A stretch of 64,000 nt of DNA, taken from positions 64,001-128,000 of the IMG/VR virus record IMGVR_UViG_3300031993_000024; one strand, 5' to 3'. Positions 8,660 through 49,647 of the stretch are shown in pieces. The notes under the pieces were generated by a model that saw only the letters and a program-made list of their open reading frames with translations, had not been told where the DNA came from and made no database searches. Origin of the DNA: a virus. Taxonomy: Duplodnaviria > Heunggongvirae > Uroviricota > Caudoviricetes. How positions within the stretch are numbered: the stretch's first letter is position 1; every line of letters starts with the position of its first letter. The position numbers and the translations under genes were made by a program.

Positions 8660-9115
8660 ATGGAAGAAAATGTTAAAATAACGCAGAATCAGGATAGGTT
8701 ACCGGATGCAGGCATTCTGTCTATGGACCTCGCAAGTCGAGTTCCTTACGGCGTCAAGCTTGATTATTGCGACAGGAAATCAGGCGTGCATTATGAATGT
8801 ACGCTAATATCAGCCGGCTACCGGATACAAATCAAGGAAAGTCCGTTCTATTGCAATATAGACGACGTGAAGCCGTATTTGCGCTCGATGTCGAAAATAA
8901 CGAAAGACGAAAAGGCAAGCCTCAGAGCTACTTTCGGCATTAACGACAAATATGAATTCGAGAGATGGACGTATGGCGAGGGTATGACGAGCGTCAGCTT
9001 GAAAGATGTCGTCAAATTTTTCGACTGGCTGAACAGTCATCACATCGATTACCGGAATCTTATAAGAAAGGGTCTTGCTATCGAGGCCCCAGAAAATATG
9101 TATGACCTAAAATAG
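8660..9115 (+). CDS. hypothetical protein, paralog family A (DLxxRLPYGV...KPYLRxMSxMT...DWLN.HH.DYR.LI.KGLA.EAPE.MY)
   Basis: three conserved blocks shared with 10 other ORFs in the window. Confidence 0.85.
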   Translation: MEENVKITQNQDRLPDAGILSMDLASRVPYGVKLDYCDRKSGVHYECTLISAGYRIQIKESPFYCNIDDVKPYLRSMSKITKDEKASLRATFGINDKYEFERWTYGEGMTSVSLKDVVKFFDWLNSHHIDYRNLIRKGLAIEAPENMYDLK

Positions 9116-9123
9116 TTTCAATT

Positions 9124-9489
9124 ATGGAAATGGAAAGTATTGTCTATAGGACAAAATGTTATGAGCCGAAATCCGGCAGGTGGTATCAGAAATCGGTTTG
9201 TCTCGCCCATCTATACGGAGGAACCAGCTATGAATGGACAGATACCCCCGACCACAGACTGATGAAAGAGAAAGTTTGCATACGTGAGTTTCTGAATCCA
9301 GACAATATGGATATGTCATGGTACGAAGAAGATGACATCGACAAAGAATATAACAGCAATGACATTAAATATCAGATAAACTTTTCTGACAAGCTTGACG
9401 GCTTCCATCTTGAACGCCTTTTGTACAAAGGCAACGTGATTTATGCCGCTGCTACTGTCTGTACAAAGAAAATCCAAGTTAATTCTTAA
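9124..9489 (+). CDS. hypothetical protein
   Basis: ORF track. Confidence 0.7.
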   Translation: MEMESIVYRTKCYEPKSGRWYQKSVCLAHLYGGTSYEWTDTPDHRLMKEKVCIREFLNPDNMDMSWYEEDDIDKEYNSNDIKYQINFSDKLDGFHLERLLYKGNVIYAAATVCTKKIQVNS

Positions 9490-9500
9490 TTTCCGCGGTT

Positions 9501-9923
9501 ATGGATGATAAAAAATTTTTAGTGACAAGAACAGTAAACGTAAGCGTCAGCTTCCGTGTCACCAATGCCGTAGATGAATTTGTCTATGTCCATAAGGATG
9601 ATTTCCGCGGAGCAGTTAGAATGGATACCATGACGAAGATACACCTTACGTCCGGAGCACGAGACTCGAGAGACCTATATGTCAAGGAATCCGTCGAAGA
9701 GGTAAACGCTCTCGTTGACGAGGCAAAGCAGGTGTGGTTTAGAGAAACCAGCAAGGTAAAAAATTACGACTGTAAGAAGTCTAAGCTTATTGAGAAAGCG
9801 TGCGAATGGCTTGAAGAGAATGCCTATTCCTATAATTACATAAAGGTCGGTCTTGCAGGGCAAGGCGATACCTATGATATTGAAAGTATGCTTGAAGACT
9901 TCAAGAAAGCTATGGAAAAATAA
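9501..9923 (+). CDS. hypothetical protein
   Basis: ORF track. Confidence 0.7.
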   Translation: MDDKKFLVTRTVNVSVSFRVTNAVDEFVYVHKDDFRGAVRMDTMTKIHLTSGARDSRDLYVKESVEEVNALVDEAKQVWFRETSKVKNYDCKKSKLIEKACEWLEENAYSYNYIKVGLAGQGDTYDIESMLEDFKKAMEK

Positions 9924-9926
9924 CTT

Positions 9927-10214
9927 ATGATTACAGATAAGGAAAAAATAGAAGAGATAGTACAGATGTCTAACGCGTACCAGGTGTACGACGTGGTTGA
10001 TTTCGACGCCTTACGTGAAGCTCTAAGGGAAGACTTGCTCGAAATGGCGCAATGGAAAGATGAATGTCATAAGGTGGAAATGGAGAAGTGTGCGAAGGCG
10101 AAAGAGCAACAGATTTTCTCAATACTGCACCAGTTTGGATATGACTCCGCTCTTGTGGCAGTTCAGCATTATATTTCTACTGTAAATGAAGAGAGTCAGT
10201 TACATAAACAATAA
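9927..10214 (+). CDS. hypothetical protein, family E
   Basis: LLEMAQWKDE. Confidence 0.75.
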   Translation: MITDKEKIEEIVQMSNAYQVYDVVDFDALREALREDLLEMAQWKDECHKVEMEKCAKAKEQQIFSILHQFGYDSALVAVQHYISTVNEESQLHKQ

Positions 10215-10218
10215 GGAA

Positions 10219-10413
10219 ATGAAACGACAATATCGGAGAAATATAGTTAGGAGCTGTATCAATTCTGAACTTTCGAAACGAATAGCTTCAGAATATGCCG
10301 GTAAAGACATAGGCGAGCTTGATGTTGAAGTCGCATGCAGTGAAATCGCTAAACTGAAAGACGAAAAGTTTGACGAAGAAAGAAAATTTATGTTTGACGA
10401 GCTTCTCAAATGA
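10219..10413 (+). CDS. hypothetical protein, family E
   Basis: CSEIAKLKDEKF. Confidence 0.7.
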   Translation: MKRQYRRNIVRSCINSELSKRIASEYAGKDIGELDVEVACSEIAKLKDEKFDEERKFMFDELLK

Positions 10414-11473: not shown

Positions 11474-11944
11474 ATGCAAGTAAAACAGGTTAAGAAAGAA
11501 GTAATGTCGGAAGTCTTTGTTTCTATTGACGGAAAGGAATTTGTCGACAAGTATGATTGCGAGATGCACGAAGCTCAGTATGTCATAGACAGCTGCAAGG
11601 ATATGTTTGAAATCAAGCGAGTATTGTCTTATGATGGTAACAAGCGCCGTATGATGTTCACATATAATGAAATTGCCGCTAAGGAACATCCAGACTTATT
11701 CCGGAAGATGTTACTGCTTTTTATCAATACAGTTATAGATGAAGATTACAAGATTGCAAACATCGTAAAGGTTTCTAATATGTACATCATTTCTCATTTT
11801 CTTGATTCATATAAGTTCAAGCATCAAAAGAAATATGTCATTGAGCGAGAGCGGATGTTTGGTAGCAGCGAGCCGGATTCAATTTCATTGAATGTCATTG
11901 ATGTGGACAACTACCTTGAAGATATTCAAAAGCGAGTGGAATGA
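11474..11944 (+). CDS. hypothetical protein, paralog of 25402-25911; TGA11942 aligns to Trp of the paralog (frame continues to 12013)
   Basis: DGKEFVDKYDCEMHE vs DGKVFERVDDCICHE; C-terminal alignment. Confidence 0.75.
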   Translation: MQVKQVKKEVMSEVFVSIDGKEFVDKYDCEMHEAQYVIDSCKDMFEIKRVLSYDGNKRRMMFTYNEIAAKEHPDLFRKMLLLFINTVIDEDYKIANIVKVSNMYIISHFLDSYKFKHQKKYVIERERMFGSSEPDSISLNVIDVDNYLEDIQKRVE

Positions 11945-21524: not shown

Positions 21525-22586
21525 ATGATATTCAAGACGCTAAAAGATAGGACAAATTATTACCGTGACCTGTTCGACTATAAAATCACGCCGAACAGCT
21601 GGTATATCATTATGCTTGACGGCCATTCGTTTTCAAAGAGCATCAAAAAACGTTATAAGAGGCCGTTTGACGATGTTTTCGTCTCTGCTATGGACGAAAC
21701 AGCTCTTCACCTATGCAAGAAGCTTCAGAATATAAAATATGCGTTTATACAAAGCGATGAGATAAATCTCTTCTGCAAAGACGAGTCAGCATCAGGACTT
21801 GATTTCAACGGCAGGCTGTGCAAGCTACAGTCCATCTGCGCCGGTATTGCGACTGCCAAATTCAACCATATCCTATGGGAACTTGGTGACAAGAATGAGT
21901 ATGAGTTCGATTGCAAGGTATGGAGCGTTCCAAATGAGGATGAGGCCAACGCATGGCTGAGGTATAGAATGAATGACTGTGTCCGCAATGCCGTCAACAG
22001 CGTCGGTGAGCACGTCCTTGGACATAAGGCTATAAAGGGTAAGAAGCGGAATGAAGTAATAGAGATGCTTAACGATAAAGGCTATTATTATAACTTGCTG
22101 CCGGCTGGCATAAGGTTCGGAAGGATAATCAGTCAACATCTTGAAATTAGGAACGGCGTAATGAGGAATACCTATAAGCTGTCGCCAAGATGTAATGACG
22201 ATATGAGGACTATCTGCTTTGATAAGACATTGAGAGCAAATGATATATATGAGTATGAAGCATTATGTAATGAAAAGATGCTTGAAAGAGGTGAGGATGC
22301 TTATGCCGGTATAAATATCAGCTATCTCATAGATACCGATACGAAAATCATCGAGGCAAAGACGTATGCCGTAAAGAAAAAAGATAAAACACTCGAAAGT
22401 ATAATAGACAACTTCATTAAGAACAGATATAAGAAAGTTGTCATATCGTATGGAATTATCGGAATTCTTAAAGGAGTCGAGATGACGCATGAAGATAACT
22501 ACTATTATGCAGAGACAGAGGACGGCAAGGGATATTATCTGACTTGTGTCGCCAAGCTACAAGTTGTTGACGAAAAGGAGGAATAA
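21525..22586 (+). CDS. thg1: Thg1-like (tRNA-His guanylyltransferase / 3'-5' polymerase) with C-terminal extension
   Basis: IMLDGHSFSK, RPFD, QSDEI, GRLCKL, FDCKV, RMNDCVRN motifs. Confidence 0.85.
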   Translation: MIFKTLKDRTNYYRDLFDYKITPNSWYIIMLDGHSFSKSIKKRYKRPFDDVFVSAMDETALHLCKKLQNIKYAFIQSDEINLFCKDESASGLDFNGRLCKLQSICAGIATAKFNHILWELGDKNEYEFDCKVWSVPNEDEANAWLRYRMNDCVRNAVNSVGEHVLGHKAIKGKKRNEVIEMLNDKGYYYNLLPAGIRFGRIISQHLEIRNGVMRNTYKLSPRCNDDMRTICFDKTLRANDIYEYEALCNEKMLERGEDAYAGINISYLIDTDTKIIEAKTYAVKKKDKTLESIIDNFIKNRYKKVVISYGIIGILKGVEMTHEDNYYYAETEDGKGYYLTCVAKLQVVDEKEE

Positions 22587-29288: not shown

Positions 29289-29762
29289 ATGGAAACAACG
29301 ACTACAATAAGCACTGACAATAAGCTGAAAACTAATAACTTTAAGCCAAAGTTCAAAGTTGGTGATTGGATTATAGGCAGAGCAACAGAGAATGAACCAA
29401 GACAAATTGCAGAGGTTACAAAAGACGGATATAAGACAACTTATGGTGGATGGATTGGTTCTTCTTTTGAAGAAGAAATACACCTTTGGACCATAGAGGA
29501 TGCGAAGGATGGAGATGTAATATTTTACGATAGTGGATGGACTTGTATTTTTAAGTACATTCATGGAATATGGTATAGTTCACATTGTTTCATAACTGCA
29601 GATGGAGAGTTTCATACAGGTTATGAGGAGCATTCTATTGATGCTAAAATGAATGGTAATGCTCATCCTGCAACAAAAGAACAACGAGACCGCTTGTTTC
29701 GAAGGATGAAAAAAACAGGGTATGAATGGGATTCAGAAAAGAAAGAACTAAATAAGATATAA
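29289..29762 (+). CDS. single-module protein, family C
   Basis: KFKVGDW / HLWTIEDAKDGDV / HPATKEQRD...GYEWD. Confidence 0.85.
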   Translation: METTTTISTDNKLKTNNFKPKFKVGDWIIGRATENEPRQIAEVTKDGYKTTYGGWIGSSFEEEIHLWTIEDAKDGDVIFYDSGWTCIFKYIHGIWYSSHCFITADGEFHTGYEEHSIDAKMNGNAHPATKEQRDRLFRRMKKTGYEWDSEKKELNKI

Positions 29763-33674: not shown

Positions 33675-33726
33675 TAATTAAATAATAGCTACCATTAAAA
33701 TTTTATTTTCCATTTATCCAAATAAT

Positions 33727-33739: not shown

Positions 33740-33773
33740 TAAGTAATGATAAACTATAAAAAATAAAAATATT

Positions 33774-34550: not shown

Positions 34551-34565
34551 CTATGTCAATATCTT

Positions 34566-34790: not shown

Positions 34791-34810
34791 AAATACTAAA
34801 AAACAGAATT

Positions 34811-35052: not shown

Positions 35053-35101
35053 AAATACTATGTTCAATTCTACAGAAGAATCTAAATTTGATTAAAAAAT
35101 T

Positions 35102-35392: not shown

Positions 35393-35396
35393 CAAT

Positions 35397-38300: not shown

Positions 38301-39173
38301 TACAAAATTATAGAGGTTTGCGAGTCTTGGTATGAGGTAATCTCGTATAATGGCGAAACAGGAAAACAGTATTCCATTGGTTTTGATAATGAAAATAACT
38401 GTCGTCTTTGGACTATCGAAGATGCAAAAGAAGGAGATGTACTTGCATGGGATGGTAGTATGTGTCTTGCTTTATTCAAAAGTATTTACAATAAAGAGGA
38501 TTTTTGCAGTTACGGACTTGTAGGGCACTGTACTCAATCTTTCGAAAATAGAGAAGGTTTCCATGACATAGAAGGAGCTCATCCTGCCACTAAAGAACAA
38601 CGTGACCTATTCTTTCAAAAGATGAAAGAAGCAGGCTACGAATGGAATGCTAAAAATAAAGAATTAAGAAAACAATGTAATCAGGAACCTGTTGACAAGG
38701 TTGGTCCAAAGTTTCAGAAAGGGCAGTGGATTTTTCATGAAGGATTTCATCCCATGTTTATAGTAAACATTGACGGTGATAAGTATGAAATTGAATTTAC
38801 TGACAATGGTACCAAAGGAACTCAGCCTATTGATTTTATAGATAAAATCTGTCATCTCTGGACTATCGAAGATGCAAAAGAAGGTGATGTACTTGCAATC
38901 GGAAATACGTATTTCCTATTTAAAGGAGCAATATTTAAAAGTTTTCCTACATCACCGACTGTTTATATCAGCCATTGTTTTGCCCATGCAACTGGAGCAT
39001 TTAGGCTTACCAATGGAATGGATTGCGGTAAGTTTCATGCTATTGAAGATGGCATTGAGGTCTGCCCTGCCACCAAAGAAGAGCGTGACCTGCTATTTCA
39101 TAAGATGAAAGAAGCCGGCTACGAATGGGATGCCAAAAAGAAAGAGATGGTAAAGGAAATAAACTATAAGTAA
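35397..39173 (+). CDS. 1258-aa mosaic repeat protein: family D N-terminus plus six tandem family C modules
   Basis: modules start at 36438, 36894, 37368, 37815, 38256, 38709. Confidence 0.9.
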   Translation: MENYNKLLEKAREAYSKSVTGAEKRRLESIFPELVESLDEKIRKEILDYFKDLYEHGYPTKEWVAWIEKQDKKEIDKVELCFDHSPELKGQDGKMLESIIECIDGTGLLDSDQIDWLKSFKDKCSIKDDKALLEKRVEQADYNPYKATIESIAAMVERYADNGDLKDFYDNIKVKCKDAMEYGKTLSEKRGEQKLVWSEEDNGFVDLLLAIFTNMHPNELFTTNNITVFNGDNVSSGRIATWLKSFKDKCKDVIEYNKALLENKNKDGKVIFPKFTFDDVLALECCMKMTEKEEELHEQLQSLHDRVHDVYQPDKKGNSAQEEIKERDLFKFRDSVSKATKEGRDFFKFHKGDWIVHNDKKEVFFIKNISCGYLSLEGVDGITHYPCLPLDSEFHHWTIEDVKDGDVLANKYGVIFINDGNRGGKATLDSYCYLSVQYEFCINEHKTDCWLYKDDIKPATKEQRDFFFAKMKKAGYEWDSENKELRKQCNQESIDKVEAKFKVGDWVVCDGLKTALIVNIDDDKYEVEFIDGDKGFPHIVYIDRLFHHWTIEDAKDGDVVVDKSNGTIGIFQSIGHDPDGGSHNDPSYCFLHCRYVNGFFYADFENGNMIDADDLIPAIKEQRDILFAKMAEAGYEWDPKNKSLGKQCNKELNNLKSKFKVGDWIVHNGVGVYKIVEVCESWYEVISYNNDGIVIQYSIGFDKENDCRLWTIQDAKNGDVLANTARCILIANDNKSCLCYLDKNEKFHAHNNKWLFSNFSDNVLTPATKEQRDLLFSKMKEAGYEWDAKNKELRKRSNPESNKVGPKFKVGDWVIGEGFNPILITDIKNNRYEFEFIDGTKRFSGIDCIDSDFNLWTIEDAKDGDVLAGHECYVLFKNIAGLNIRCHCTYHYMGYNPSFHVETLQNKTAFRPATNEQRDLLLQKIEDAGYEWDAKNKELRKQCNQESIVRAYPKFKVGDWIVHNDVSVYKIIEVCESWYEVISYNGETGKQYSIGFDNENNCRLWTIEDAKEGDVLAWDGSMCLALFKSIYNKEDFCSYGLVGHCTQSFENREGFHDIEGAHPATKEQRDLFFQKMKEAGYEWNAKNKELRKQCNQEPVDKVGPKFQKGQWIFHEGFHPMFIVNIDGDKYEIEFTDNGTKGTQPIDFIDKICHLWTIEDAKEGDVLAIGNTYFLFKGAIFKSFPTSPTVYISHCFAHATGAFRLTNGMDCGKFHAIEDGIEVCPATKEERDLLFHKMKEAGYEWDAKKKEMVKEINYK

Positions 39174-39197
39174 TGACACAAACAAAAAGTAAATGTT

Positions 39198-39410
39198 ATG
39201 ATTTCACAAGAAGAAAAAAGAAAAAATGATTTTGTCAGCGGAAAATTCCTTACGTGCCAAAAATCCTTCAATGAGTTTAAAGAAGGAAACACTTATTGGC
39301 TTGAATACATAGGCGCTGACACATACGTTGGAAGGAGTGACAATATTCTCAATCGAAAATTTCACATAACCCCGTCCCAATTGTTCAGCTTATTTGTAAA
39401 TAACAATTAA
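39198..39410 (+). CDS. hypothetical protein
   Basis: ORF track. Confidence 0.6.
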   Translation: MISQEEKRKNDFVSGKFLTCQKSFNEFKEGNTYWLEYIGADTYVGRSDNILNRKFHITPSQLFSLFVNNN

Positions 39411-39420
39411 ATTTATAACT

Positions 39421-39606
39421 ATGGCATTTGAATTGTTTGGAAATATTTATGAAGAGGTTGAGGATAACCGTTCTGAATCAGACTGCTTATCTTGTGCATT
39501 GCTCAAAATTTGTGAGAAGACAAAGCCACTTTTACCGTGTAAAAGAAAAGACGGCAACATAAACAGACATTTCATCATTGTAGAAAAATTAAATGAGGAG
39601 AAATAA
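39421..39606 (+). CDS. small Cys-containing hypothetical protein
   Basis: CLSC...C...C. Confidence 0.6.
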   Translation: MAFELFGNIYEEVEDNRSESDCLSCALLKICEKTKPLLPCKRKDGNINRHFIIVEKLNEEK

Positions 39607-39608
39607 TT

Positions 39609-39857
39609 ATGATACCTAAACTATTAAAACGTCATTACTTAAAACCAAACTCATCTCAAAGAGATTATGTAAGTATCTGGCAAACAGATGAATGTTATAT
39701 TATACCATTCTTTTCAGTCACCAATATCATGAACATCATGCGCAAAGGCAACGCTTACGTGAGACTTGGGTGGCTATGCTGGTATATAGAATATTTTAAT
39801 GATAGTGTCCTTTCAGCTTGGTGTTATGAAGAAGATTCCCAAGAAAAAGAAAATTAA
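39609..39857 (+). CDS. hypothetical protein
   Basis: ORF track. Confidence 0.6.
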   Translation: MIPKLLKRHYLKPNSSQRDYVSIWQTDECYIIPFFSVTNIMNIMRKGNAYVRLGWLCWYIEYFNDSVLSAWCYEEDSQEKEN

Positions 39858-39868
39858 ATACAAAGGAT

Positions 39869-40342
39869 ATGGAAACAATATTCAAAGAAGGAGATTGGAT
39901 TGTAAGAATTGACGGTTCTGACATTGTACCAAAAGTACGTACTATGTTAGTTCGAAAGATTGATACGGATTGTGTGCACTGTGAATATGAAACGTCAACT
40001 AAATTTGTCTATGGGTACTTAATACCAAACGAATTACTCAATAATTTTAGATTATGGAATATCAACGATGCAAAAAGAGGTGATTTTCTATGGGATAGTG
40101 AAAACTATACGGCAGTTGTATTTGATGAATTATTTGAAGATTCATTCAATGTATTTTGCTTGGTTATATATGGTGATTTAAGTAGGGCTAACAAGCTTTA
40201 TGTAAAGCATTTTAAACTCAATCCAGAAAAAGTTCTGTCATATACCCCGATACCAGCAAGATATAATATTGTGGATTATGTTTTAGGAGACTACGGATAT
40301 AAGTGGGATAAGGATAAAAATGAATTGATAAAAATAAAATAA
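39869..40342 (+). CDS. divergent single-module family C protein
   Basis: FKEGDWIV / RLWNINDAKRGD / GYKWDKDKNEL. Confidence 0.8.
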   Translation: METIFKEGDWIVRIDGSDIVPKVRTMLVRKIDTDCVHCEYETSTKFVYGYLIPNELLNNFRLWNINDAKRGDFLWDSENYTAVVFDELFEDSFNVFCLVIYGDLSRANKLYVKHFKLNPEKVLSYTPIPARYNIVDYVLGDYGYKWDKDKNELIKIK

Positions 40343-40351
40343 GCAAAGGAT

Positions 40352-40648
40352 ATGGCAAAGAGAAGTTCAATATGGATTGGTAAAGAAGCATATCAGTACT
40401 TACTAACGTTATCGATAACTCAAAGATGCGGCAAAAGGCCAGATGCTGAAACTCTTGAAAAGAAGTGGCGTTACAAACTGTCAGTCGCCGGCGAGAACGA
40501 TATGGTGCAAATCATGGATGGTGACTTAGGTGGTGCGGATTCTGTCGGTATATGGCACAATTGGACTTTGCAGGATATAAAGTACTTCTTGAAAAGAAAA
40601 GGATTGAAATGGCAAAGAGGTAAAATGGTTGAATATACTACGATATAA
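40352..40648 (+). CDS. hypothetical protein
   Basis: ORF track. Confidence 0.7.
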   Translation: MAKRSSIWIGKEAYQYLLTLSITQRCGKRPDAETLEKKWRYKLSVAGENDMVQIMDGDLGGADSVGIWHNWTLQDIKYFLKRKGLKWQRGKMVEYTTI

Positions 40649-40683
40649 ACAGTTATTTAATATGTAATTAAAATAGGAGATAT

Positions 40684-41061
40684 ATGGAAGATATGCAAAA
40701 AATGACAGGAATGTGTGAATATGGATTCTATGTGAATACTGATGTGACAAAATTTATCGGTGCGATATTGAGCGCACCTGGAAATTTGATAGGTATTGGA
40801 GAATTAAAGGAACCAATAACTATTGACCATAACTTATGTCTTAGAATTTCAAGATTGCTTGAAATAACTGCGGATATATCCTATTCACCAATAAATGATA
40901 AATGCTTTTATGTAAACATAGGACTTTTAAGTTTCATTAACCGTGTATTAAATGTTGGATTTGGAACTGAAATTCAAATTGACAATGCGAGGACAGAGAA
41001 GGATTATTTGCTTGACGTGTCAAAACATCCGCTTATATGTTCGGTAATAACAAAACATTAA
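40684..41061 (+). CDS. hypothetical protein
   Basis: ORF track. Confidence 0.65.
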   Translation: MEDMQKMTGMCEYGFYVNTDVTKFIGAILSAPGNLIGIGELKEPITIDHNLCLRISRLLEITADISYSPINDKCFYVNIGLLSFINRVLNVGFGTEIQIDNARTEKDYLLDVSKHPLICSVITKH

Positions 41062-41162
41062 CAACATCAAAGAATGTATTTAAGTTGATAAACTAAATAA
41101 ATATAATAAATTTTATTAGAACTTTATAGTTTAGTTTTATATAAAATTTTTTAGTTAGTATA

Positions 41163-41387
41163 TTGAAATGATATAAGGTTGCTACTAAAACATTTCCTTA
41201 GTAGTGTAAAATCATCAAGGATTCGGAATGACCAATACATGAATTCTCAAGACTGTTCGAAAGAATAGAATCATAGAGACTTAAAAAAGTAAAAGTAGTC
41301 ACAGATGAGCAAATATTGCTCTTACGTGATAGAGGTGATGTTGTTTCGCAATTGATGTTAGAAATAACTCATAAACATTCTTTATAA
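41163..41387 (+). pseudogene. 74-codon frame with 2 TGA + 3 TAG and no TAA
   Basis: hand translation; preceded by the motif variant GTTTAGTTTTATATAAAA; no ATG start. Confidence 0.4.
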
Positions 41388-41642
41388 ATTTTATATAATT
41401 TATTAAAAATGATACAATATGTACAATTAAAAATTGATATATGGAAAATTTAGCAGACGGACAAATTGATTTGCTATTCACAATGCTTATGGCTGAAGCA
41501 ACAGATACCGACCCATTTGAAATGGAACAAGAATTAAAAAATAAAGGTTTGATTGAGCAGCCATCTACAATAGGATTAAGCAGTGGAGAATAGCTGTTGA
41601 AAGTGTAAAAATTACAAAGAAGAAAATTAAAATATAAAGGAT

Positions 41643-42917
41643 ATGGAAAGACAAGAAGCAATAGAAGTTATAAAAAAGAATTGGCCTCACAGTGGTTACA
41701 CAATGTTACGTGAGGCTCTGGAAACCTTAATTCCGGAGCTAAAAGAGAGCAAAGATGAAAAGATGAGGAAAGACCTTATTAAGTTTGTCCTACAATATGG
41801 TGATAGTCATTATTCTCAAATAGATAAAGAATCCGCAATTTCCTGGCTTGAAAAACAAGGAGAACAGAAGCCTTCTTGGAGTGAGGAGGATGAGATTGGA
41901 TATAATGACGTACTATTTGCAATAGGAAAAGCAAGACTTGTTGCTAAAGATGAAAATGATATGGGTAATCTTTGGTTTGCTGAAAATTGGCTTAAATCAT
42001 TAAAAAGAAATAGAGTTGTAAAGATTGAAAAACAAGATGTGAGGATACTTAAAGATAATTCAACATCCGAACTCAATGAGAGCGAGGATGAGGAGATAAG
42101 AAAATGGATTATTAACGAAATCAAGATTAAGCATCATAACTTAGATGAAGATAGTGTTGATTTTGTAGATAAGGCAATTACTTGGCTTGAAAAGCAAGGA
42201 GAACAAAAACGATTAGACTATCCTTATGTTACTGGATGGAGAGAAAATCGCCCAGATAATAAGCCACAAATAAAGCATTCCGTTCTTATGCTTACAACTC
42301 ATGGCGTAGCAGAAGGAGAATGGCTTGGCGAAGAATGGTGTCAATACAGATGGTCCGGTAAAGTAAAAGATACCGATGTCTTATATTGGCTTCATTTATC
42401 TGACTTAGAATCCCTTGAAAAAGAAGGTAATAGCAATTCAATTTCTCCAGAAGAAATGAATAAATCCATTTGCAGAGGCATTGCATCTTCACTCACTAAA
42501 TATCTTGACGATAACAGATACGCAGGAGCTATGAATATGTCAAACATGGAATGCGAAGATTTGGAAAAATCAATACTTGATTCGAATTGGGAGAAAGTGT
42601 ACCGTTATATGCGAAAGAAACTTGAAAAGCAAGGTGGACAGAAGTCTTATTGGAGTGAGGAGGATGAAAATCTGTTCAATAATTTGGTTTATCTTATTGA
42701 AAACAGTAATACGGGGAAAGCGACTCAAAAAGGATTTATTACATTTATAACCAAACTAAAATCATTACTGAAATCATTCAAACCTCAATGGAAACCCAGT
42801 GAAGAGCAAATGCAGACTCTTAACAACTTCTTAACTTTTGGAGGCACAACATGGAGACAAGATACCGGAGTGCTTTCCTCTCTATACGAAGACTTACAAA
42901 AACTACTAAAAGAATAA
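41643..42917 (+). CDS. mosaic repeat protein, family D (ESxDExIRK / WLEKQGEQK / WSEEDE)
   Basis: internal repeats shared with the N-terminus of 35397. Confidence 0.85.
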   Translation: MERQEAIEVIKKNWPHSGYTMLREALETLIPELKESKDEKMRKDLIKFVLQYGDSHYSQIDKESAISWLEKQGEQKPSWSEEDEIGYNDVLFAIGKARLVAKDENDMGNLWFAENWLKSLKRNRVVKIEKQDVRILKDNSTSELNESEDEEIRKWIINEIKIKHHNLDEDSVDFVDKAITWLEKQGEQKRLDYPYVTGWRENRPDNKPQIKHSVLMLTTHGVAEGEWLGEEWCQYRWSGKVKDTDVLYWLHLSDLESLEKEGNSNSISPEEMNKSICRGIASSLTKYLDDNRYAGAMNMSNMECEDLEKSILDSNWEKVYRYMRKKLEKQGGQKSYWSEEDENLFNNLVYLIENSNTGKATQKGFITFITKLKSLLKSFKPQWKPSEEQMQTLNNFLTFGGTTWRQDTGVLSSLYEDLQKLLKE

Positions 42918-42921
42918 AACT

Positions 42922-43326
42922 ATGGAAACAAAGATAGCGACATCATTGGAGCAAAGTATCAAACTAACTACTGAGCTGAGAATAGACCCAAACACAGCAG
43001 ACATGCACTGGGAGTCTATATCTGGTGAGGAATATAGATTGGCTATGCTTACAACTAAAGAAGCAATAGCATCTATTAAAAGAACACAGGATTCGTTAAA
43101 AACAACATTTAATGTAAAATTGGTTCCTGCTTGGAGTCTTTCGGCATTGCTTAATATTTTACCATTAGAAGTTTCACTTAATAAACAGACTGATGGTATA
43201 AAAACATATTATTATATAGCATCTTATGAAGCACGTTATTTTGATGTATATTCGAACAGGCACCTCGATGCTGTTGATGCTTGTGTAGAAATGATAGCTA
43301 AGCTTAAAAAAAGAAATTTGATATAA
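42922..43326 (+). CDS. hypothetical protein (ATSLEQSxKL...PAWSLSALL), distantly family B-like layout
   Basis: ORF track. Confidence 0.75.
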   Translation: METKIATSLEQSIKLTTELRIDPNTADMHWESISGEEYRLAMLTTKEAIASIKRTQDSLKTTFNVKLVPAWSLSALLNILPLEVSLNKQTDGIKTYYYIASYEARYFDVYSNRHLDAVDACVEMIAKLKKRNLI

Positions 43327-43342
43327 CAAATGAACTATACAC

Positions 43343-43609
43343 TTGAAAATAAAAAATAATACAGATATGGAAAATAATACTAAACATACAAATAAGTTCA
43401 GATACATAATAGAATTTGACAACTGCGACAATTGCCCACTTAAAAAGTTTGTTGATGATGATTATTCGCCAACACATACCGAGTGCGAACGAACAAATGA
43501 ATATATAGAGCAGTGGTTGTTTGAGAACGAACATCGAGACTATCGTAATTATGAAACAGGTGTATTGGATAATTGCCCATTCTTAAAAAATAATACTATA
43601 ACTGCATAA
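43343..43609 (+). CDS. Cys-rich hypothetical protein
   Basis: CDNCP...C...CP. Confidence 0.65.
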   Translation: MKIKNNTDMENNTKHTNKFRYIIEFDNCDNCPLKKFVDDDYSPTHTECERTNEYIEQWLFENEHRDYRNYETGVLDNCPFLKNNTITA

Positions 43610-43613
43610 AATT

Positions 43614-44072
43614 ATGACAACAGAAGAAAAACAGTTGCTATTAAAAGACCTTTGCGCGAGGTTGCCGTATGGTGTAAAATTATACCACGAAGGTGATTAC
43701 GGGGACAATATCGGAAAACTTGAATCTGTTAATATAAATGACGACGAATGTGTCATTTGGAATTATAACGGAACAGACACCGATATTTTTGACATAGAAG
43801 CATGCAAGCCATATCTCCGCCCGGTATCCTCAATAACGGAGAATGAAATGGATAAGCTTTTCGAAATTGCGAAGGTTAATCCGGATGGCACCGATGAAGA
43901 CTGGATTTCGATAAATGATGTGAAAGGTATCAGATTCCATTTCTTAACAGGCAGGTATGCTGATACCATCGGCAAAATATGCGACTACCTGGACTCTATC
44001 TACATAGATTATAGAGAACTTATTCCTAAGGGGCTTGCTCTTGAAGCCCCGAAAGATATGTATAAAATATAA
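43614..44072 (+). CDS. hypothetical protein, family A
   Basis: three conserved blocks. Confidence 0.85.
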   Translation: MTTEEKQLLLKDLCARLPYGVKLYHEGDYGDNIGKLESVNINDDECVIWNYNGTDTDIFDIEACKPYLRPVSSITENEMDKLFEIAKVNPDGTDEDWISINDVKGIRFHFLTGRYADTIGKICDYLDSIYIDYRELIPKGLALEAPKDMYKI

Positions 44073-44087
44073 CTTAAAAGAATAATT

Positions 44088-44906
44088 ATGACTGCAGAAA
44101 ATGAAACATTGCTGATGAGAGACCTGATAGCAAGGCTTCCATACGGCGTAAAATTAGATTTCTATGCTAAGGCGACTAAAAGTCATTACACTTGCGAACT
44201 AATAGGTATCGAGCCTGAAAATAACGACAAGCCTCTTATTGCGAAAGTGGACAGCGGCGCGTTCAGGTTCACGCAAGACCATGTCAAGTTGTTTCTTCGT
44301 CCGATGTCAAGTATGACGGACATGGAGAAAAGCATTTATGAGGCTTTGACATTTACGGATGATATAAGCAAAATAAATCCTGAATGGTGTTCCAAAGTCA
44401 TTACGTGGCTTAATGAAAATCATTTCGATTATAATCATTTAATTGAAAAGGGTCTCGCTCTGGAAGCTCCTGAAGGAATGTATGCGAAATCTGAAGGCAC
44501 CGTTGAAAAAGATGAGTTGTCAAGTGAAGAGTCTGAGTTGCTGCGTAAGGACTTGTTCGCAAGATTACCTTATGGCATATTCGTAAAGGAAAAAAGAGAC
44601 GGACTTGATAACAGTCTGATTATTTATACTGACATGTATCATCCTCTTATAAGCAGCTGCAGGCCATATCTTCGTCCGATGCAATCAATGACCGAAGAAG
44701 AATTTAATAAGTATCGTGAGCTTGTTAAAGGAGTGTTCAGCCCTGTACCTAACAATATCGAGATGCTATATGATTTTCTTAATGGACGTTACTTTGATTA
44801 CAGAGGGTTGATTGCGAAAGGACTCGCATTAAAAGCTCCTGACGATATGTATAATAATAAAAAAAATAATTATGAAAAACAAGGAGAAAGCAGAGCTGAT
44901 AGCTAA
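44088..44906 (+). CDS. family A tandem fusion (two units)
   Basis: EAPEGMY...KDLFARLPYG internal junction. Confidence 0.85.
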   Translation: MTAENETLLMRDLIARLPYGVKLDFYAKATKSHYTCELIGIEPENNDKPLIAKVDSGAFRFTQDHVKLFLRPMSSMTDMEKSIYEALTFTDDISKINPEWCSKVITWLNENHFDYNHLIEKGLALEAPEGMYAKSEGTVEKDELSSEESELLRKDLFARLPYGIFVKEKRDGLDNSLIIYTDMYHPLISSCRPYLRPMQSMTEEEFNKYRELVKGVFSPVPNNIEMLYDFLNGRYFDYRGLIAKGLALKAPDDMYNNKKNNYEKQGESRADS

Positions 44907-45105
44907 CGGTATAATGATAGGCGTACAGTCAAATATCTATCATACGAACGTTTATAATACAAATGTTAGATGTTATAATCATAGCGACCTACAAAGGGCG
45001 GCTATGGAGATGGCAAAGTGGAAAGATGAAGAGTTTGAAAAGAGAAAAAAGAAAATCCATGATAATCTTATTAAACTCCTTCATGCAAGAGGTCTGATGA
45101 GATAA
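44872..45105 (+). CDS. hypothetical protein, family E
   Basis: AAMEMAKWKDEEF. Confidence 0.8.
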   Translation: MKNKEKAELIANGIMIGVQSNIYHTNVYNTNVRCYNHSDLQRAAMEMAKWKDEEFEKRKKKIHDNLIKLLHARGLMR

Positions 45106-45129
45106 ATGAGAGAATAATATTAAAGCGAT

Positions 45130-45600
45130 ATGAACAAGTATCACAAAAAGAATAGGATTATGGAAGCTTATATGAATCTCGTTGAGGAGGAGATTAAGAA
45201 TCTCGGAGGAAAGATTAGCTATACGCTTGATACTTCCGAACAATTTTGTGGCAAGGCGATGTTTGTATTTAAGTATGCGTTGGGTAAATTAGTAGAAGGA
45301 AAAGATTACACAGGACATTGTACAGTTGCAACATTGTTTGTTTATTTCAGGAAGAATACTTTTAATCAGATTGAATTTTCTGATTATAATAAACACATTT
45401 GTAGGACATTGGCTAATTCAAATTTTGATGGGAGTGAAAGAGATAGGAAACTTATAAGGTTTTCACTATTCAGAATTCTTGAGAGTATTTATAAGGACTG
45501 TTATACAAGCGTTGATGAATCGTTATGGAAGGAAGGACTTCTTGATGAGAAAAACATATACCATAAAGACAAACAATTTTTCAAATTATTGAATAAGTAA
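45130..45600 (+). CDS. hypothetical protein, paralog of 24371
   Basis: shared motifs. Confidence 0.8.
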   Translation: MNKYHKKNRIMEAYMNLVEEEIKNLGGKISYTLDTSEQFCGKAMFVFKYALGKLVEGKDYTGHCTVATLFVYFRKNTFNQIEFSDYNKHICRTLANSNFDGSERDRKLIRFSLFRILESIYKDCYTSVDESLWKEGLLDEKNIYHKDKQFFKLLNK

Positions 45601-45625
45601 GAACTGTTTATTAAGATTGAAAATT

Positions 45626-46165
45626 ATGACAACAGAAGAAAATGAATTATTAAGAGACCTTTCGGCGAGACTGTCGTACGGCGTAATATGCAAAGGAATA
45701 AACAGGTACTTTGATATAGACAAAGATAAGTATATTATAGACAGGGAAGCCGTCGGTCCATTGACAAACATTGGATATGATTATTGTACACTTGGTCTTA
45801 CACAAAAATGTAAACTAAGTACAATTAGACCATATTTGCGCCCATTAGAAAGTATGACTGATGAGGATTTAATTTCCTATGCTAAATATGACTTTGCTTA
45901 TGACGATATTTATAAGATAGTTGGCTTCCGTTGTACAGGAAAGGGTTTCATAAATATTCATTGTTCATTAGTACGTGACCCAGAACATTATCAAGTAATT
46001 TTCCAAAAGACAAGAACTTCGCCATTAGAAAACTGGCGAGGAATTGATTGGCTCAACTCACATCACTTCGACTTCAGAGGTTTAATTAAGAAAGGCCTCG
46101 CATTAAAAGCTCCTGAAGATATGTACAATTTTTTAAATAATCAAGCAAATGATAATAGAAAGTAA
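45626..46165 (+). CDS. hypothetical protein, family A
   Basis: three conserved blocks. Confidence 0.85.
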   Translation: MTTEENELLRDLSARLSYGVICKGINRYFDIDKDKYIIDREAVGPLTNIGYDYCTLGLTQKCKLSTIRPYLRPLESMTDEDLISYAKYDFAYDDIYKIVGFRCTGKGFINIHCSLVRDPEHYQVIFQKTRTSPLENWRGIDWLNSHHFDFRGLIKKGLALKAPEDMYNFLNNQANDNRK

Positions 46166-46358
46166 AATGAAGAATCAAGCTTGTCTTAAACAATGTCCAC
46201 ACGCAGATTTTGTATTGAGGGTAGGTAGTATTGTATGTAGTAGGTGTAAGTATAACAAGCTTACAAGATATGATTTTGATAGTTGTTACGTTGACTGTAT
46301 ATGTCCAGATGATAAGATATTAAAGAATTTTGAAGATTTACAAAATAAAGATGCCTGA
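46149..46358 (+). CDS. small Cys-rich hypothetical protein
   Basis: ORF track. Confidence 0.6.
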   Translation: MIIESKMKNQACLKQCPHADFVLRVGSIVCSRCKYNKLTRYDFDSCYVDCICPDDKILKNFEDLQNKDA

Positions 46359-46385
46359 AGATAATTTTAATAAACGATTACTATT

Positions 46386-46690
46386 ATCAACCACCCACGA
46401 ACTAAAGATTCGTGGGTTTGGCGGAAACGCTGAACCCAAGGTTGATTAGACTGAGTAAGACCGGCAGCTGACGAGTTTCAGCGATGGTTGCACTACGTTA
46501 TGTGGAAATATATAGACACCAAGGGATGTTCATCCAAGTCCCTTGCTCTGTGGCTGATGTTTAAACAACTCCGTTGGGTAGGAGCAGTGATGTCAGCATC
46601 AAAACTCCACGATAACATTGTCTATGGATGTTTTTACGAGTTAAGACTCTCGGCTTACAGCAACTAAAAGTCTATTTTTTAACTATTTAA
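46386..46690 (+). ncRNA. omegaRNA (HEARO-type) scaffold of IscB
   Basis: TCAACCACCCACG...GGTTGATTAG...CTACGTT...GGGATG...TCCAAGTCCC...CTCTG...AACATTG layout upstream of iscB; 3' end approximate. Confidence 0.75.
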
Positions 46691-46701
46691 TAAACTAACA
46701 A

Positions 46702-47937
46702 ATGGTAGTATATATACTTGACATAAATGGCAATCCTTTGATGCCGACATCACGAAACCGAAAGGTTCGTAAGATGTTGGAACAAGGGTTATGTCATATA
46801 GTCAAGAATACACTATTCACAATCCAATTAGACTATGAGACAGCTAATTTTAAACAAGGCATCACCCTCGGTGTTGACTGCGGTACGAAACACATAGGTT
46901 TATCCGCAACAACCGACAAAAAAGAACTGCTATCAGCAGAAATCATTTTAAGAACAGACATTGTTGAACTACTATCAACTCGGAGGGAAACAAGAAGAAC
47001 TCGTAGAGCGAGACTAAGACATCGCAAGGCAAGGTTTGACAACAGAATTTCACGAAAAAGAAAAGGATGGTTAGCACCAAGCGTGGAGAATAAAATCAAC
47101 TCCCACTTGTCGATTATACGCAAACTTCACCAAATCTTGCCGATAACGAGGATAAATCTTGAAGTAGGTAGTTTTGATACACAAAAGATGCAAGACGATA
47201 CAATTCAAGGTGTAGGTTATCAGCAAGGTGTACAATATGGATTTTGGAATGTAAGGGAATATGTTCTTGCAAGAGACAAGCATACCTGCCAATATTGCAA
47301 AGGAAAGTCCAAAGACCAAGTGCTGAATGTTCACCACATTGAAAGCAGAAAGATTGGTGGAGACTCACCAAACAATTTGATTACATTGTGCGAGACTTGC
47401 CACGGCAAATACCATAAAGGATTGTTACCTAAATTCCAACCAAAGAGGGGAAAGTCACTCCATGACGCTGCGGTTATGGGTATATTCAAGTGGCGGTTGT
47501 ACGAACTTGTGAAACAAGAGTTCAGTAATGTTGGTATGACCTTTGGCTACATAACAAAATGTAATCGAATACAATACGGATTGCCGAAATCACACAATGT
47601 AGATGCTTATTGTATCGCTTGTAACTTTGCTGCAATACAACTTGGTTATATGTATAAGTTTAGGCAGTTGAGGAAACATAACAGACAAATCCACAAGTAT
47701 TCCATTTTGCGAGGAGGGGTAAGAAAACTTAATCAAACTCCCTATAAGGTGTTTGGATTTAGGTTGTTTGACAAGGTTTCTTGGGAAGGTCAAGACTGCT
47801 TTATAGGAGGAAGGAGGTCAAGCGGAGCGTTCAAGTTGGTTGACATAAACAACAAGTTGGTTAAGGATGGTGTTTCATACAAGAAATTAAGGTTGTTAGA
47901 ACCAAAAAGAACCTATATATGTTCAATAGTAAAATAA
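46702..47937 (+). CDS. iscB: RNA-guided endonuclease IscB
   Basis: PLMP domain, RuvC-I GVDCG, Arg-rich bridge helix, RuvC-II LEVG, HNH CxxC..VHHI..N..CxxCH, RuvC-III SHNVDA. Confidence 0.93.
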   Translation: MVVYILDINGNPLMPTSRNRKVRKMLEQGLCHIVKNTLFTIQLDYETANFKQGITLGVDCGTKHIGLSATTDKKELLSAEIILRTDIVELLSTRRETRRTRRARLRHRKARFDNRISRKRKGWLAPSVENKINSHLSIIRKLHQILPITRINLEVGSFDTQKMQDDTIQGVGYQQGVQYGFWNVREYVLARDKHTCQYCKGKSKDQVLNVHHIESRKIGGDSPNNLITLCETCHGKYHKGLLPKFQPKRGKSLHDAAVMGIFKWRLYELVKQEFSNVGMTFGYITKCNRIQYGLPKSHNVDAYCIACNFAAIQLGYMYKFRQLRKHNRQIHKYSILRGGVRKLNQTPYKVFGFRLFDKVSWEGQDCFIGGRRSSGAFKLVDINNKLVKDGVSYKKLRLLEPKRTYICSIVK

Positions 47938-48010
47938 GTTAAACTAAAAAAGGCTTGTGGCGATTCCTCCCCGAAACTAAAGATTTCGGGGTTTCCTTGC
48001 CACCAATTAT

Positions 48011-48289
48011 ATGAAAAACGATGAAAAAGCAAAGAATATGACCAAAGGCTTTTTACAGCAAGGATTGATAAAGAAAAGTCGATTGCAAGAATTATTAACA
48101 AAAGCTATGCAATGGAAAGATGAGCAATACCAAATAGATAAAGCTCATTTAGATATGATATATAAGGCCCTTGGTAGATTGTATCAAGTTAGATATGGAA
48201 AAGAGCCTATTCTTAACACAGGAAGTCAAACCGATGTTTTCCTGTATATGATTGAAGATATTATTAACGAAGCAAATTCAAAAAAATAA
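48011..48289 (+). CDS. hypothetical protein, family E
   Basis: KAMQWKDEQY. Confidence 0.75.
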   Translation: MKNDEKAKNMTKGFLQQGLIKKSRLQELLTKAMQWKDEQYQIDKAHLDMIYKALGRLYQVRYGKEPILNTGSQTDVFLYMIEDIINEANSKK

Positions 48290-48293
48290 AATT

Positions 48294-48683
48294 ATGACAG
48301 CAGAAGAAAAAGAATTATTGCTTAAAGATTTAAGCGCGAGACAGCCGTATGGCGTAATGTTTCAATATCAGACAGGTAGTTATAATTCAACAGTAACAAG
48401 TGACTATTTTCCAATGGTTGGAATAATTCAGAATGCTGTTGTCCTTGATATAAAGAATAGAGGATTATTCAATTTATCTTTAGAAGATAGCCAATGCAAG
48501 CCTTACCTACGTCCACTATCTTCAATGACAGAGGATGAGAAAGACATTTATGACAGACTGGTCATGTTCAATGCAGCTTGGGTAGTCATGGACTGGCTTA
48601 ATGAAAATCATTTTGACTATCATAAGCTTATTGAAAAAGGTCTCGCGCTGGAAGCTCCGGAAGGAATGTATAATTTTAAATAA
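48294..48683 (+). CDS. hypothetical protein, family A
   Basis: three conserved blocks. Confidence 0.85.
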   Translation: MTAEEKELLLKDLSARQPYGVMFQYQTGSYNSTVTSDYFPMVGIIQNAVVLDIKNRGLFNLSLEDSQCKPYLRPLSSMTEDEKDIYDRLVMFNAAWVVMDWLNENHFDYHKLIEKGLALEAPEGMYNFK

Positions 48684-48690
48684 TAAGAAT

Positions 48691-49089
48691 ATGACAACAG
48701 AAGAAAAACAACTTTTATTGGAAGACCTCTGCGCGAGGCTGCCGTATGGTTTGAAGGTCCATATTGATGGAGTTGCCGATAGCGTCCTTACAGGAGTATA
48801 TGATGACAGAGTCTCTACGGAGAGAGGAATAAACTATCCAATAAGACTGGTTAAGCTATACTTGCGTCCTCTGTCAAGTATGACAGAAAAGGAAATGGAA
48901 TCACTAAGGCAGGAACATCTTAAAGACGAAAAACTTTATGTCGAAGCAATCAATGGAGACGGCAGTATGAGAGGAAAAGTCATAACTCATTATGCTGCTG
49001 ATTATTGTGATGAACATCACTTGGATTACAGAGGGCTGATTCAGAAGGGCTTAGCATTGGAAGCACCAGAAGATATGTATCTAAAATAG
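48691..49089 (+). CDS. hypothetical protein, family A
   Basis: three conserved blocks. Confidence 0.85.
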   Translation: MTTEEKQLLLEDLCARLPYGLKVHIDGVADSVLTGVYDDRVSTERGINYPIRLVKLYLRPLSSMTEKEMESLRQEHLKDEKLYVEAINGDGSMRGKVITHYAADYCDEHHLDYRGLIQKGLALEAPEDMYLK

Positions 49090-49242
49090 TTGGCTATGAA
49101 AGAACTACAAGAAGCAATTCAATCGGCAATACAAAATGTATTAGACGGTGATTGTGATGAGTTAAAAGGTTTATCAATACATATTGATGTTTTTATTGAT
49201 GAGCAAGGATTTGTTGATGTAAACGTATTAAATTAAGATATT

Positions 49243-49647
49243 ATGGCAGCAGAAGAAAAAGAATTATTACTTAAAGATTTATGCGCAAGGCTACCGTATC
49301 AAATTAAGGTAGCAGTTGTTGATTTTGATGGAACTATCCATAAAAGGCCAGTCACATTGCTTCGTGGCGGATGGTATGCCGAATACGAAAATGGAGAATA
49401 CATGTTTATAACTTCTTATTACGGAATAGCTCATAAAGCTGAAGAGATAAGGCCTTATCTCCGTTCAGTATCAAGTATGACGGAAGAAGAGAGGAAGGAT
49501 TTATATGCAATGGAGGATAAGATGTCTTTTTCAAAGGATTGCCCTTATTCGCCTGACAGGTCTGATTGGTATATAAGACATAACTTTGACTTCAGAGGCT
49601 TGATTGAGAAAGGCCTCGCGCTGGAAGCTCCAGAAAGCATGTACTAA
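49243..49647 (+). CDS. hypothetical protein, family A
   Basis: three conserved blocks. Confidence 0.85.
   Translation: MAAEEKELLLKDLCARLPYQIKVAVVDFDGTIHKRPVTLLRGGWYAEYENGEYMFITSYYGIAHKAEEIRPYLRSVSSMTEEERKDLYAMEDKMSFSKDCPYSPDRSDWYIRHNFDFRGLIEKGLALEAPESMY

Follow-up and report, generated by a model that had tools for sequence, protein, structure and literature searches.

How do unrelated small proteins of one phage come to share a single architecture, in which a few conserved blocks frame segments that differ freely, and are these segments reshuffled between copies? This question is raised by a 64,000-nucleotide (nt) stretch of viral DNA (hereafter, the window) comprising bases 64001-128000 of the 130,999-bp IMG/VR viral record IMGVR_UViG_3300031993_000024, where three gene families (A, B and C) are built from three constant blocks (C1, C2 and C3) separated by two variable segments (V1 and V2). 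Comparison with related genomes answers much of it directly: segments have been exchanged between copies, the breakpoints fall in the constant blocks, and the process has been active recently between strains. The best overall explanation, which we regard as probable, is that general recombination at protein-constrained blocks re-pairs the variable segments of three expanded families.

The genes of the window are nearly all small, encoded on the plus strand and densely packed, with A-rich leaders. Its DNA is contained in bovine gut metagenome runs of two studies, one of these being the possible source, and near-identical contigs of 238,631 bp and 235,706 bp occur in European Nucleotide Archive (ENA) assemblies; runs X4-X9, with small word shares, were left out of habitat and strain claims, X4 covering little beyond an HNH endonuclease gene. 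All-vs-all BLASTP of every window open reading frame (ORF) of at least 45 amino acids (aa) recovered family A exactly as a first-pass annotation, made from the letters alone, had listed it, with 11 ORFs and 12 units (8660, 28619, 30862/30910, 31670, 32160, 43614, 44088, 45617/45626, 48252/48294, 48601/48691 and 49243), and the in-frame fused pair that it had described proved to be two complete units inside the 44088 ORF. The remainder of that inventory was reproduced as well: at least seven ORFs in family B, six of them clear (22, 2017, 2975, 3376, 51760 and 52841) and a divergent seventh at 56169; eight modules in family C, six in a 1258-aa ORF at 35397 plus those at 29289 and 39869; the constant-variable-constant-variable-constant layout in all three families; and the lack of relationship between families A and B (hhalign probability 0.9%). 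Four further family B ORFs lie immediately upstream of the window.

In family A, the blocks read MTxEEKxLLLKDLxARLPYGVK (C1), VKPYLRPxSSMTxxEK (C2) and DWLNEHHFDYRGLIxKGLALEAPExMY (C3), while V1 (25-50 aa within the window) and V2 (16-60 aa) differ freely in sequence as well as in length. All family copies are intact, co-directional, plus-strand and separately startable ORFs. Their products are acidic in all three families (median isoelectric point 4.8-5.3) and have no hydrophobic segment; acidity and aromatic content are higher in the variable segments than in the constant blocks. What is probably a degraded family A copy lies at G000 48777-49699, ~15 kb before the window, with C1-like and C3-like pieces in separate short ORFs and a stop codon between them.

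A profile search of 1.84 billion proteins (E ≤0.001) yielded 7,784 family A cluster representatives at 50% identity, and in IMG/VR the family was located at 286 places, most of them on contigs of 100-410 kb; its tandem arrays, carried by huge phages of the gut and rumen, reach 21 copies in 20 kb. The large arrays of relatives hold 21 (L006, IMGVR_UViG_3300031994_000001, 413 kb), 15 (L058) and 11 (L046) ORFs per 20 kb, and families B and C share 20-kb neighbourhoods with family A in many of 76 loci. A set of 460 non-identical family A units was cut into C1/V1/C2/V2/C3 by alignment to the family hidden Markov model (HMM), and V1 and V2 were compared separately. Identity of at least 90% was reached by V1 in 29 pairs and by V2 in 48, but by both in only 7; V1 identity of at least 60% went with an unrelated V2 in 136 pairs, and the reverse held in 189. 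In some pairs V1 is 100% identical and V2 is unalignable and of different length, and in others the reverse is seen. Because clustering of the protein database removes concordant pairs, the comparison was repeated with units from the loci only, where a V1 type was shared by 38 pairs, a V2 type by 48 and both by 1, the association between V1 and V2 was minimal (adjusted mutual information 0.026), and 20 of the 21 multi-member V1 types were found with at least two V2 types.

Incongruence of V1 and V2, set beforehand as a test, is therefore what the 460 units display, with nearly random pairing, and the new pairings looked for in related genomes were found in family A, in family B and in a sister strain of the phage. 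A small combinatorial set, as the first-pass term 'combinatorial' might suggest, is not seen: the 460 units contain 346 types of V1 and 318 of V2 (25-67 aa and 12-60 aa, respectively, in the wider unit set, and unalignable between copies), so that the number of types is open-ended. Individual window copies bear the same signature. A45626 has its V1 partner in L003:9543 (59%) and its V2 partner in a different gene, L023:6661 (71%); the best partners of V1 and V2 also differ for A48691; and for A30910 a V1 partner was found in P0088 (66%) and no V2 partner. Judged from these sequence comparisons, several family A copies of the window are mosaics relative to other phages.

Ordinary paralogs that keep a conserved core while their loops diverge by point mutation, insertion and deletion, with no recombination at all, would resemble what this genome shows when taken alone, namely blocks conserved at the protein level, near-saturated synonymous sites and unalignable variable segments. 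Divergence of this kind, however, cannot place a 100% identical V1 beside an unalignable V2 of different length, or the reverse, nor can it generate the family B trio or the in-frame V2 replacement between 97-99% identical strains described below, and it is hardly credible as an account of the data.

The position of the exchanges can be read from the DNA. Halves shared between family A units are tracts of 85-93% identity that extend either from the start codon to a point inside C2 or from inside C2 to the stop codon, on contigs from different samples and between unrelated flanks. Mean identity drops midway through C2, between its two halves, and a residue-level linkage map places the crossover in the invariant C2 core PYLRPxSSMT. 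Two re-paired family A pairs are intragenomic, one in L017 (10001 vs 19350) and one in L058. Family B behaves in the same manner: among 85 units, V1 is shared by 20 pairs, V2 by 9 and both by none. Its clearest case is a trio in which the two ends of L004:17603 have different partners: between the start codon and C2 the gene matches L046:7950 (97.6% identity), and between C2 and the stop it matches L046:14803 (89.5%). The switch is inside the C2 block APTLQMAMKWLRE and the flanks are alike only at the family level, which makes L004:17603 a clean recombinant of parents of the L046:7950 and L046:14803 types. Within the giant gene of family C, modules 3 and 5 have V1 segments of 84% nt identity and V2 segments at background (46%), and modules 2, 4 and 6 share a second V1 type (~65%) next to three unrelated V2 segments.

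Recent activity is seen in the sister strain, which is known from runs X2 and X3 (an independent sample and study), the Joint Genome Institute (JGI) contig L077 and the 235.7-kb ENA contig, and whose flanks are 97-99% identical to the window. Within 20 kb, three well-supported structural differences separate it from the window, each of them in family A or family C. One lies in the giant family C gene, where X2 and X3 contigs (side 255) join 36623 to 37694 with 155 unlike nt between. The joint leaves module 1 at the final base of its C2 block (36623) and enters module 3 at the third position of the opening codon of its C3 block (37694), and the 155-nt replacement, known from the joint and its length, keeps the frame. 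Because the joint connects the end of C2 to the start of C3, it constitutes a new V1/V2 pairing between near-identical genomes: V1 of module 1 is followed by another, novel V2, and sequence equivalent to two modules is missing. A second joint, 49080 to 49650 (569 bp), takes out A49243 and is seen in X2/X3 and in L077. The latter matches the window to 49080 and again from 49578, the 67-bp overlap being block C3, and base-by-base alignment shows a switch between A48691 and A49243 inside C3. At the third site, the stand-alone family C gene 39869 is replaced by 47 nt (joint 39813 to 40330), and the gene order of the 235.7-kb contig lacks both A49243 and gene 39869. Short-sided joints (20-40 nt) of the source run X1 (for example 32177 to 49600, 43677 to 48865 and 44321 to 44406), most likely contributed by other family members in the metagenome, were not used.

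Such joints might instead be artefacts of metagenome assemblers connecting copies, or phages, at the repeated constant blocks, since all the data are short-read metagenome assemblies, the blocks are repeats, and short contigs with sides of 20-40 nt do link blocks of different copies. Nevertheless, exact block repeats are mostly shorter than 25 nt, below usual final k-mer sizes; the A49243 joint recurs in three independent assemblies (JGI L077, Logan X2/X3 and the 235.7-kb ENA contig); and the family C joint lies within long contigs, with at least 255 nt on each side. In addition, the halves in common were assembled from different samples, and their identity is 85-93% rather than ~100%, so they do not reflect mis-joining of the same molecules. 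Chimeric assembly can scarcely be the source of the pattern.

What maintains the constant blocks was addressed by comparing their DNA. The first-pass annotation held that they stay similar at the nucleotide level, which is right for the example it cited (44405-44483 against 48595-48670, ~82% over 78 nt with a 20-nt exact run) and not for typical copies: the family A blocks average 63% nucleotide identity within the genome, and the longest exact tracts between any two copies measure 17-22 nt. Identical residues of these blocks use the same codon at a frequency of 0.416, against 0.370 expected from codon usage, and the variable segments show the same small excess in this genome; the DNA similarity of the blocks is hence mostly due to protein conservation. 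A larger, though still modest, excess (0.45-0.52 vs 0.37-0.39 expected) was obtained with 203 units from other phages, and co-resident copies in other phages have ≤14-32 nt of exact homology per block. The constant blocks consequently look protein-constrained, with no evidence of upkeep as DNA sites.

This bears on the nature of the machinery. Programmed diversification, with a site-specific recombinase, a homing-type nuclease of the RRXRR-HNH type or the reverse transcriptase of a diversity-generating retroelement (DGR) acting on the blocks at high frequency, could be suspected from the recurrence of one layout in three unrelated families and from the fact that all three strain differences in 20 kb hit families A and C. 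It could be suspected as well from a free-standing RRXRR + HNH endonuclease gene (Pfam E 1e-55 and 2e-10) that sits at 46702-47937 (+), within the main family A cluster, and has different lengths in different strains (411 aa in the window and the 238.6-kb contig, 343 aa in the sister strain, 319 aa in L077); it is possible that this enzyme stimulates local exchange. On the other side, no match to RVT_1 (reverse transcriptase), Phage_integrase or Resolvase (tyrosine and serine recombinases), and no RecA/UvsX, was detected on the 131-kb record, a fragment of the ~239-kb genome, and no silent cassettes or inverted repeats were found among the intact, co-directional copies. Variation takes the form of wholesale replacement with change of length and not of adenine-directed substitution; the segments are unequal in length and unalignable, with no equal-length template/variable pair as in a DGR. 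In comparison with shufflons, the copies all point in one direction and the integrase and resolvase searches of the fragment were negative. Blocks with almost no DNA conservation beyond protein need, as in this genome, give no sign of a specific recognition site, and shared halves that have diverged by 7-15% indicate exchange events that are not very frequent. A programmed mechanism is on these grounds very unlikely. The first-pass remark that no dedicated recombinase is visible holds for the searches of the 131-kb record, but its idea of a dedicated diversification system finds no recombinase, reverse transcriptase or silent cassette there; its recombination anchors survive as evolutionary exchange sites, on the strength of the C2 breakpoints, the trio and the strain joints, and not as parts of a dedicated system.

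General recombination at the blocks has its own difficulties, and several results count against it or restrict it. In the loci-only test, no quartet was found in which two V1 types and two V2 types occurred in every combination, which is attributed to sparse sampling of a very open type set. Several positions in the C3 tail of the sister strain agree with neither window copy, which leaves the A49243 joint ambiguous as to its exact crossover point and its exact partner; moreover, the strain differences may be gains or losses, their polarity not being fixed. Synonymous sites are near random in the constant blocks of this genome, no variable segment is common to any two of its family A copies, and exact tracts do not exceed 22 nt, which means that exchange among resident copies is infrequent on the time scale of synonymous divergence. 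The modest codon excess across the family could reflect ancestry, codon preference or homogenisation. As the record is only a 131-kb fragment, a missing recombinase proves nothing, and no fold or family match yields a function. The first-pass annotation had named three outcomes that would speak against re-pairing: saturated synonymous sites in blocks conserved at the protein level, congruent V1 and V2, and no new pairings in relatives. The first is close to true in this genome, and the other two are clearly contradicted.

Structural modelling gives the blocks a plausible role. The confident AlphaFold2 (AF2) model of A48691 (predicted local distance difference test, pLDDT, 84) contains a small beta-barrel to which C1 contributes the first strand, V1 the next four and C2 the last. 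In the same model, C1 also has a helix, the barrel strand of C2 is accompanied by a loop and a helix, V2 is a poorly predicted hairpin, and C3 folds as a helix plus an extended tail that includes a short strand. The models support a family A homodimer, scoring 0.47 against 0.14 for the best control, a mark reached by 20 of 30 solved one-chain pairs and 1 of 23 solved single chains, counts that are rough and come with our own alignment. Runs agree in at least 96% of contacts with a partner pLDDT of at least 79, and the modelled interface comprises residues 7-18 of the C1 helix, residues 34-42 of V1 and residues 84-104. Two-unit forms recur in the database (P0002-P0005, P0026, P0033 and P0151), and these natural fusions fit a paired unit.

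Searches for a function were uniformly unproductive. Foldseek against PDB gave no match at E ≤0.001 for the family A or the family B model. In a wide structure comparison, the family A barrel had generic small beta-barrel matches only (Z ≤3.9), with the V1 region matching the TDRD3 Tudor domain (3pnw_C, Z 3.9, root-mean-square deviation (rmsd) 1.6 Å, 48 aligned residues) and Hfq (4y91_A, Z 3.8, rmsd 2.4 Å, 57 aligned), both far below the level that separates relatives, and no solved structure matched the whole fold. The family B model (pLDDT 85) is an alpha/beta unit with generic beta-beta-alpha matches over residues 67-129 only (best 6q2z_B, Z 5.7, rmsd 2.4 Å, 53 aligned); those to AcrIF4, AcrIF5 and T7 Gp1.2 (Z 4-4.9) were too weak for use. 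The Atlas model of a family C module has weak KOW-like matches, and the neighbours in the AlphaFold database and Atlas are all uncharacterised viral proteins. At the sequence level, seven family A proteins had no Pfam match at E ≤0.1; Pfam, NCBIfam and PDB sequence profiles gave nothing meaningful for A, B or C; DUF4250 and PROCT matches on the 1258-aa protein were short and probably spurious; and neither megablast nor tblastn, run with the region and with A48691, returned a match among the INPHARED phages. PHROG 10841 was matched by six of six family A proteins tested (E 1e-7 to 4.8e-4), weakly and over partial stretches; like PHROG 12005 for family B, it is a function-less profile with no cassette description. 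No published description of the three families was found in the literature, and family A has no name, no Pfam family, no solved structure and no paper that could be found.

Taken together, these data are compatible with the following course of events. Three unrelated families of small, soluble, acidic proteins would have expanded in variable, hyperplastic-type regions of a ~239-kb T4-like jumbo phage of the cattle gut. Three blocks per family would be constant because they build the fold, so that variation is left to V1 and V2; the predicted scaffold of family A consists of the N-terminal helix, a strand-loop-helix hinge and the C-terminal helix with its tail, and its V1 supplies most of the small beta-barrel. 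T4-type phages perform homologous recombination efficiently. General recombination, homologous or based on short homology, could act on paralogs of the same genome as well as on related phages that co-infect a cell; it would resolve in the constant blocks because they are the only alignable stretches between copies, and would thereby yield in-frame, foldable chimeras. A crossover in C2 would re-pair V1 and V2 freely, crossovers in C3, C1 or C2 would add or remove whole copies or modules, tandem fusions would be a further product, and selection would retain those in-frame chimeras still able to fold. The machinery is presumably the general recombination of the phage or its host, with no dedicated enzyme; the diversity may be kept by selection on what the variable surfaces bind, and the proteins may be dimeric binders of variable targets of the host or of competitors, for instance in defence or takeover. 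A bolder proposal, for which we consider the chances low, is that the three families form a phage-encoded library of dimeric counter-defence or host-takeover binders, with specificity multiplied by V1/V2 re-pairing together with homo- and hetero-dimerisation through the C1 helix, and with a block layout kept partly for its recombinogenicity.

Among described systems, the closest case is the gp38/gp37 adhesin of T-even phages, in which hypervariable segments lie between conserved structural-core motifs that are preferred sites of exchange, as related in the portion of PMC3157838 that cites Tetart et al. 1998. Both share an intragenic modular design in T4-type phages, with variable segments reassorted within a large shared pool. 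However, gp38 is a single-copy virion adhesin with a known role, while here three multi-copy families encode small proteins read as non-structural, with two variable segments per unit, no gp38 homology and no glycine-rich motifs (the constant blocks contain 5.3% Gly, and neither Pfam nor PHROG gave an adhesin match), and they form tandem arrays and fusions, up to 21 copies per 20 kb in relatives. The resemblance appears to be limited to the mechanism of diversification. In the HsdS subunit of type I restriction-modification enzymes, two target-recognition domains between conserved regions are reassorted by recombination. The logic of two independently exchangeable segments in a variable-constant-variable-constant order is shared, but no Methylase_S (PF01420) match was obtained for seven family A proteins, the predicted fold is a helix plus a small beta-barrel, and the family genes are not linked to hsdM or hsdR. 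A further parallel is offered by the mobile regulatory cassettes PeSL and PmSL of T4-type phages (Arbiol et al. 2010, PMC2839356; Comeau et al. 2014, PMC4122927), of which the PeSLs are promoter/stem-loop elements located between genes and mobilise entire genes. They likewise shuffle, lose and gain small accessory genes in hyperplastic regions through short-repeat recombination, whereas here the breakpoints lie inside the coding block C2 and half-genes are exchanged. Antigenic variation in cellular pathogens (Neisseria pilE/pilS, Plasmodium var homology blocks) also re-assorts variable segments of a multigene family by recombination at conserved blocks, with one expressed locus and silent donors, or with mutually exclusive expression. 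All the phage copies, in contrast, look expressible from their sequence, and exchange is seen mainly between genomes. The families work like the gp38, HsdS and PeSL cases but belong to none of them.

Around the families lie small ORFs without assigned function, the HNH endonuclease gene and a pentapeptide-repeat protein gene. The latter, at 32572-33360 (+) right after the tandem pair 31670/32160, has a C-terminal DUF5758. Upstream regions of the family genes have no common motif beyond A-richness, and Bacteroidota-type promoter motifs are no more frequent in the window than chance predicts (3 found, 3 expected). In the precomputed annotation of the sister contigs, the gene following the family A cluster, at 49697-50176 (+), has a T4_Y16D domain (PF26092), which fits the T4-like affiliation of the phage. 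Repeated helical units ending in a WLEKQGEQK...WSEEDE-type motif are common to the N-terminal 340 aa of the giant family C protein (35397-36416) and to a 424-aa protein without any family C module, so that this helical scaffold occurs with and without C modules. Interspersed among families A-C are three additional small groups of paralogs, with 3, 2 and 2 members, and the gene at 45130 encodes 156 aa in the window and 142 aa in the sister strain. A minus-strand 'paralog group' at 36747-37172, 37725-38006 and 38664-38855 was dismissed as the antisense shadow of the family C module repeats. An unusual item of phage cargo is a Thg1-like tRNA-His guanylyltransferase domain at 21525-22586 (+) (PF04446, E 3.6e-24).

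Table 1. Window coordinates of family members, of the segment replaced in the sister strain and of other paralogous genes.
Feature	Position (strand)	Blocks, evidence or remarks
A8660, 151 aa, N-terminal extension	8660..9115 (+)	C1 8705-8758, V1 8759-8866, C2 8867-8914, V2 8915-9022, C3 9023-9103
A28619	28619..29038 (+)	C1 28625-28690, C2 28811-28858, C3 28952-29032
A30910	30910..31386 (+)	C1 30910-30975, C2 31072-31119, C3 31300-31380
A31670	31670..32155 (+)	C1 31670-31735, C2 31886-31933, C3 32060-32140
A32160, tandem with A31670	32160..32567 (+)	C1 32160-32225, C2 32349-32396, C3 32472-32552
A43614	43614..44072 (+)	C1 43614-43679, C2 43803-43850, C3 43983-44063
Two-unit in-frame fusion, 272 aa	44088..44906 (+)	Unit a: C1 44088-44153, C2 44283-44330, C3 44403-44480
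44088 fusion, unit b	(+)	C1 44520-44582, C2 44658-44705, C3 44772-44852
A45626, mosaic relative to other phages	45626..46165 (+)	C1 45626-45688, C2 45824-45871, C3 46046-46126
A48294	48294..48683 (+)	C1 48294-48359, C2 48495-48542, C3 48591-48671
A48691, left partner of the sister-strain joint	48691..49089 (+)	C1 48691-48756, V1 48757-48849, C2 48850-48897, V2 48898-48999, C3 49000-49080
A49243, absent in the sister strain	49243..49647 (+)	C3 49564-49644
Family B member	22..507 (+)	BLASTP, HMM; phrog_12005 match E 1.6e-8
Family B member, folded from ATG 2023	2017..2412 (+)	AF2 pLDDT 85
Family B member	2975..3373 (+)	phrog_12005 match E 1.8e-5
Family B member, tandem with 2975	3376..3765 (+)	
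Family B member	51760..52164 (+)	
Family B member	52841..53227 (+)	
Divergent family B member, 198 aa	56169..56765 (+)	HMM iE 5e-8, profile positions 8-126
Family C stand-alone module	29289..29762 (+)	
Family C giant gene, 1258 aa	35397..39173 (+)	Helical N-terminal part and six tandem modules (aa 341-1258)
Module 1 C2 to first codon of module 3 C3	36582..37694 (+)	36624-37693 swapped for 155 nt in the sister strain
Family C stand-alone module, absent from the sister strain	39869..40342 (+)	
424-aa protein	41643..42917 (+)	BLASTP to aa 24-260 of the 1258-aa protein, E 1e-5; helical N-terminal scaffold repeats only
Small paralog group, 3 members	10186-10413, 30650-30907, 44872-45105	
Small paralog group, 2 members	11474-11944, 25402-25911	
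Small paralog group, 2 members	24371-24799, 45130-45600	

Exchange that is ongoing between near-identical strains makes these families a tractable model for the diversity of large-phage proteins outside tail fibres. If the variable segments serve as binding surfaces, these families would offer a large and so far unused supply of natural binders or inhibitors of bacterial proteins, and the pattern of re-pairing would help to find the targets that drive the arms race in the rumen and gut. Should the binder library prove true, re-pairing would represent a general, previously undescribed route by which huge phages track variable host targets.

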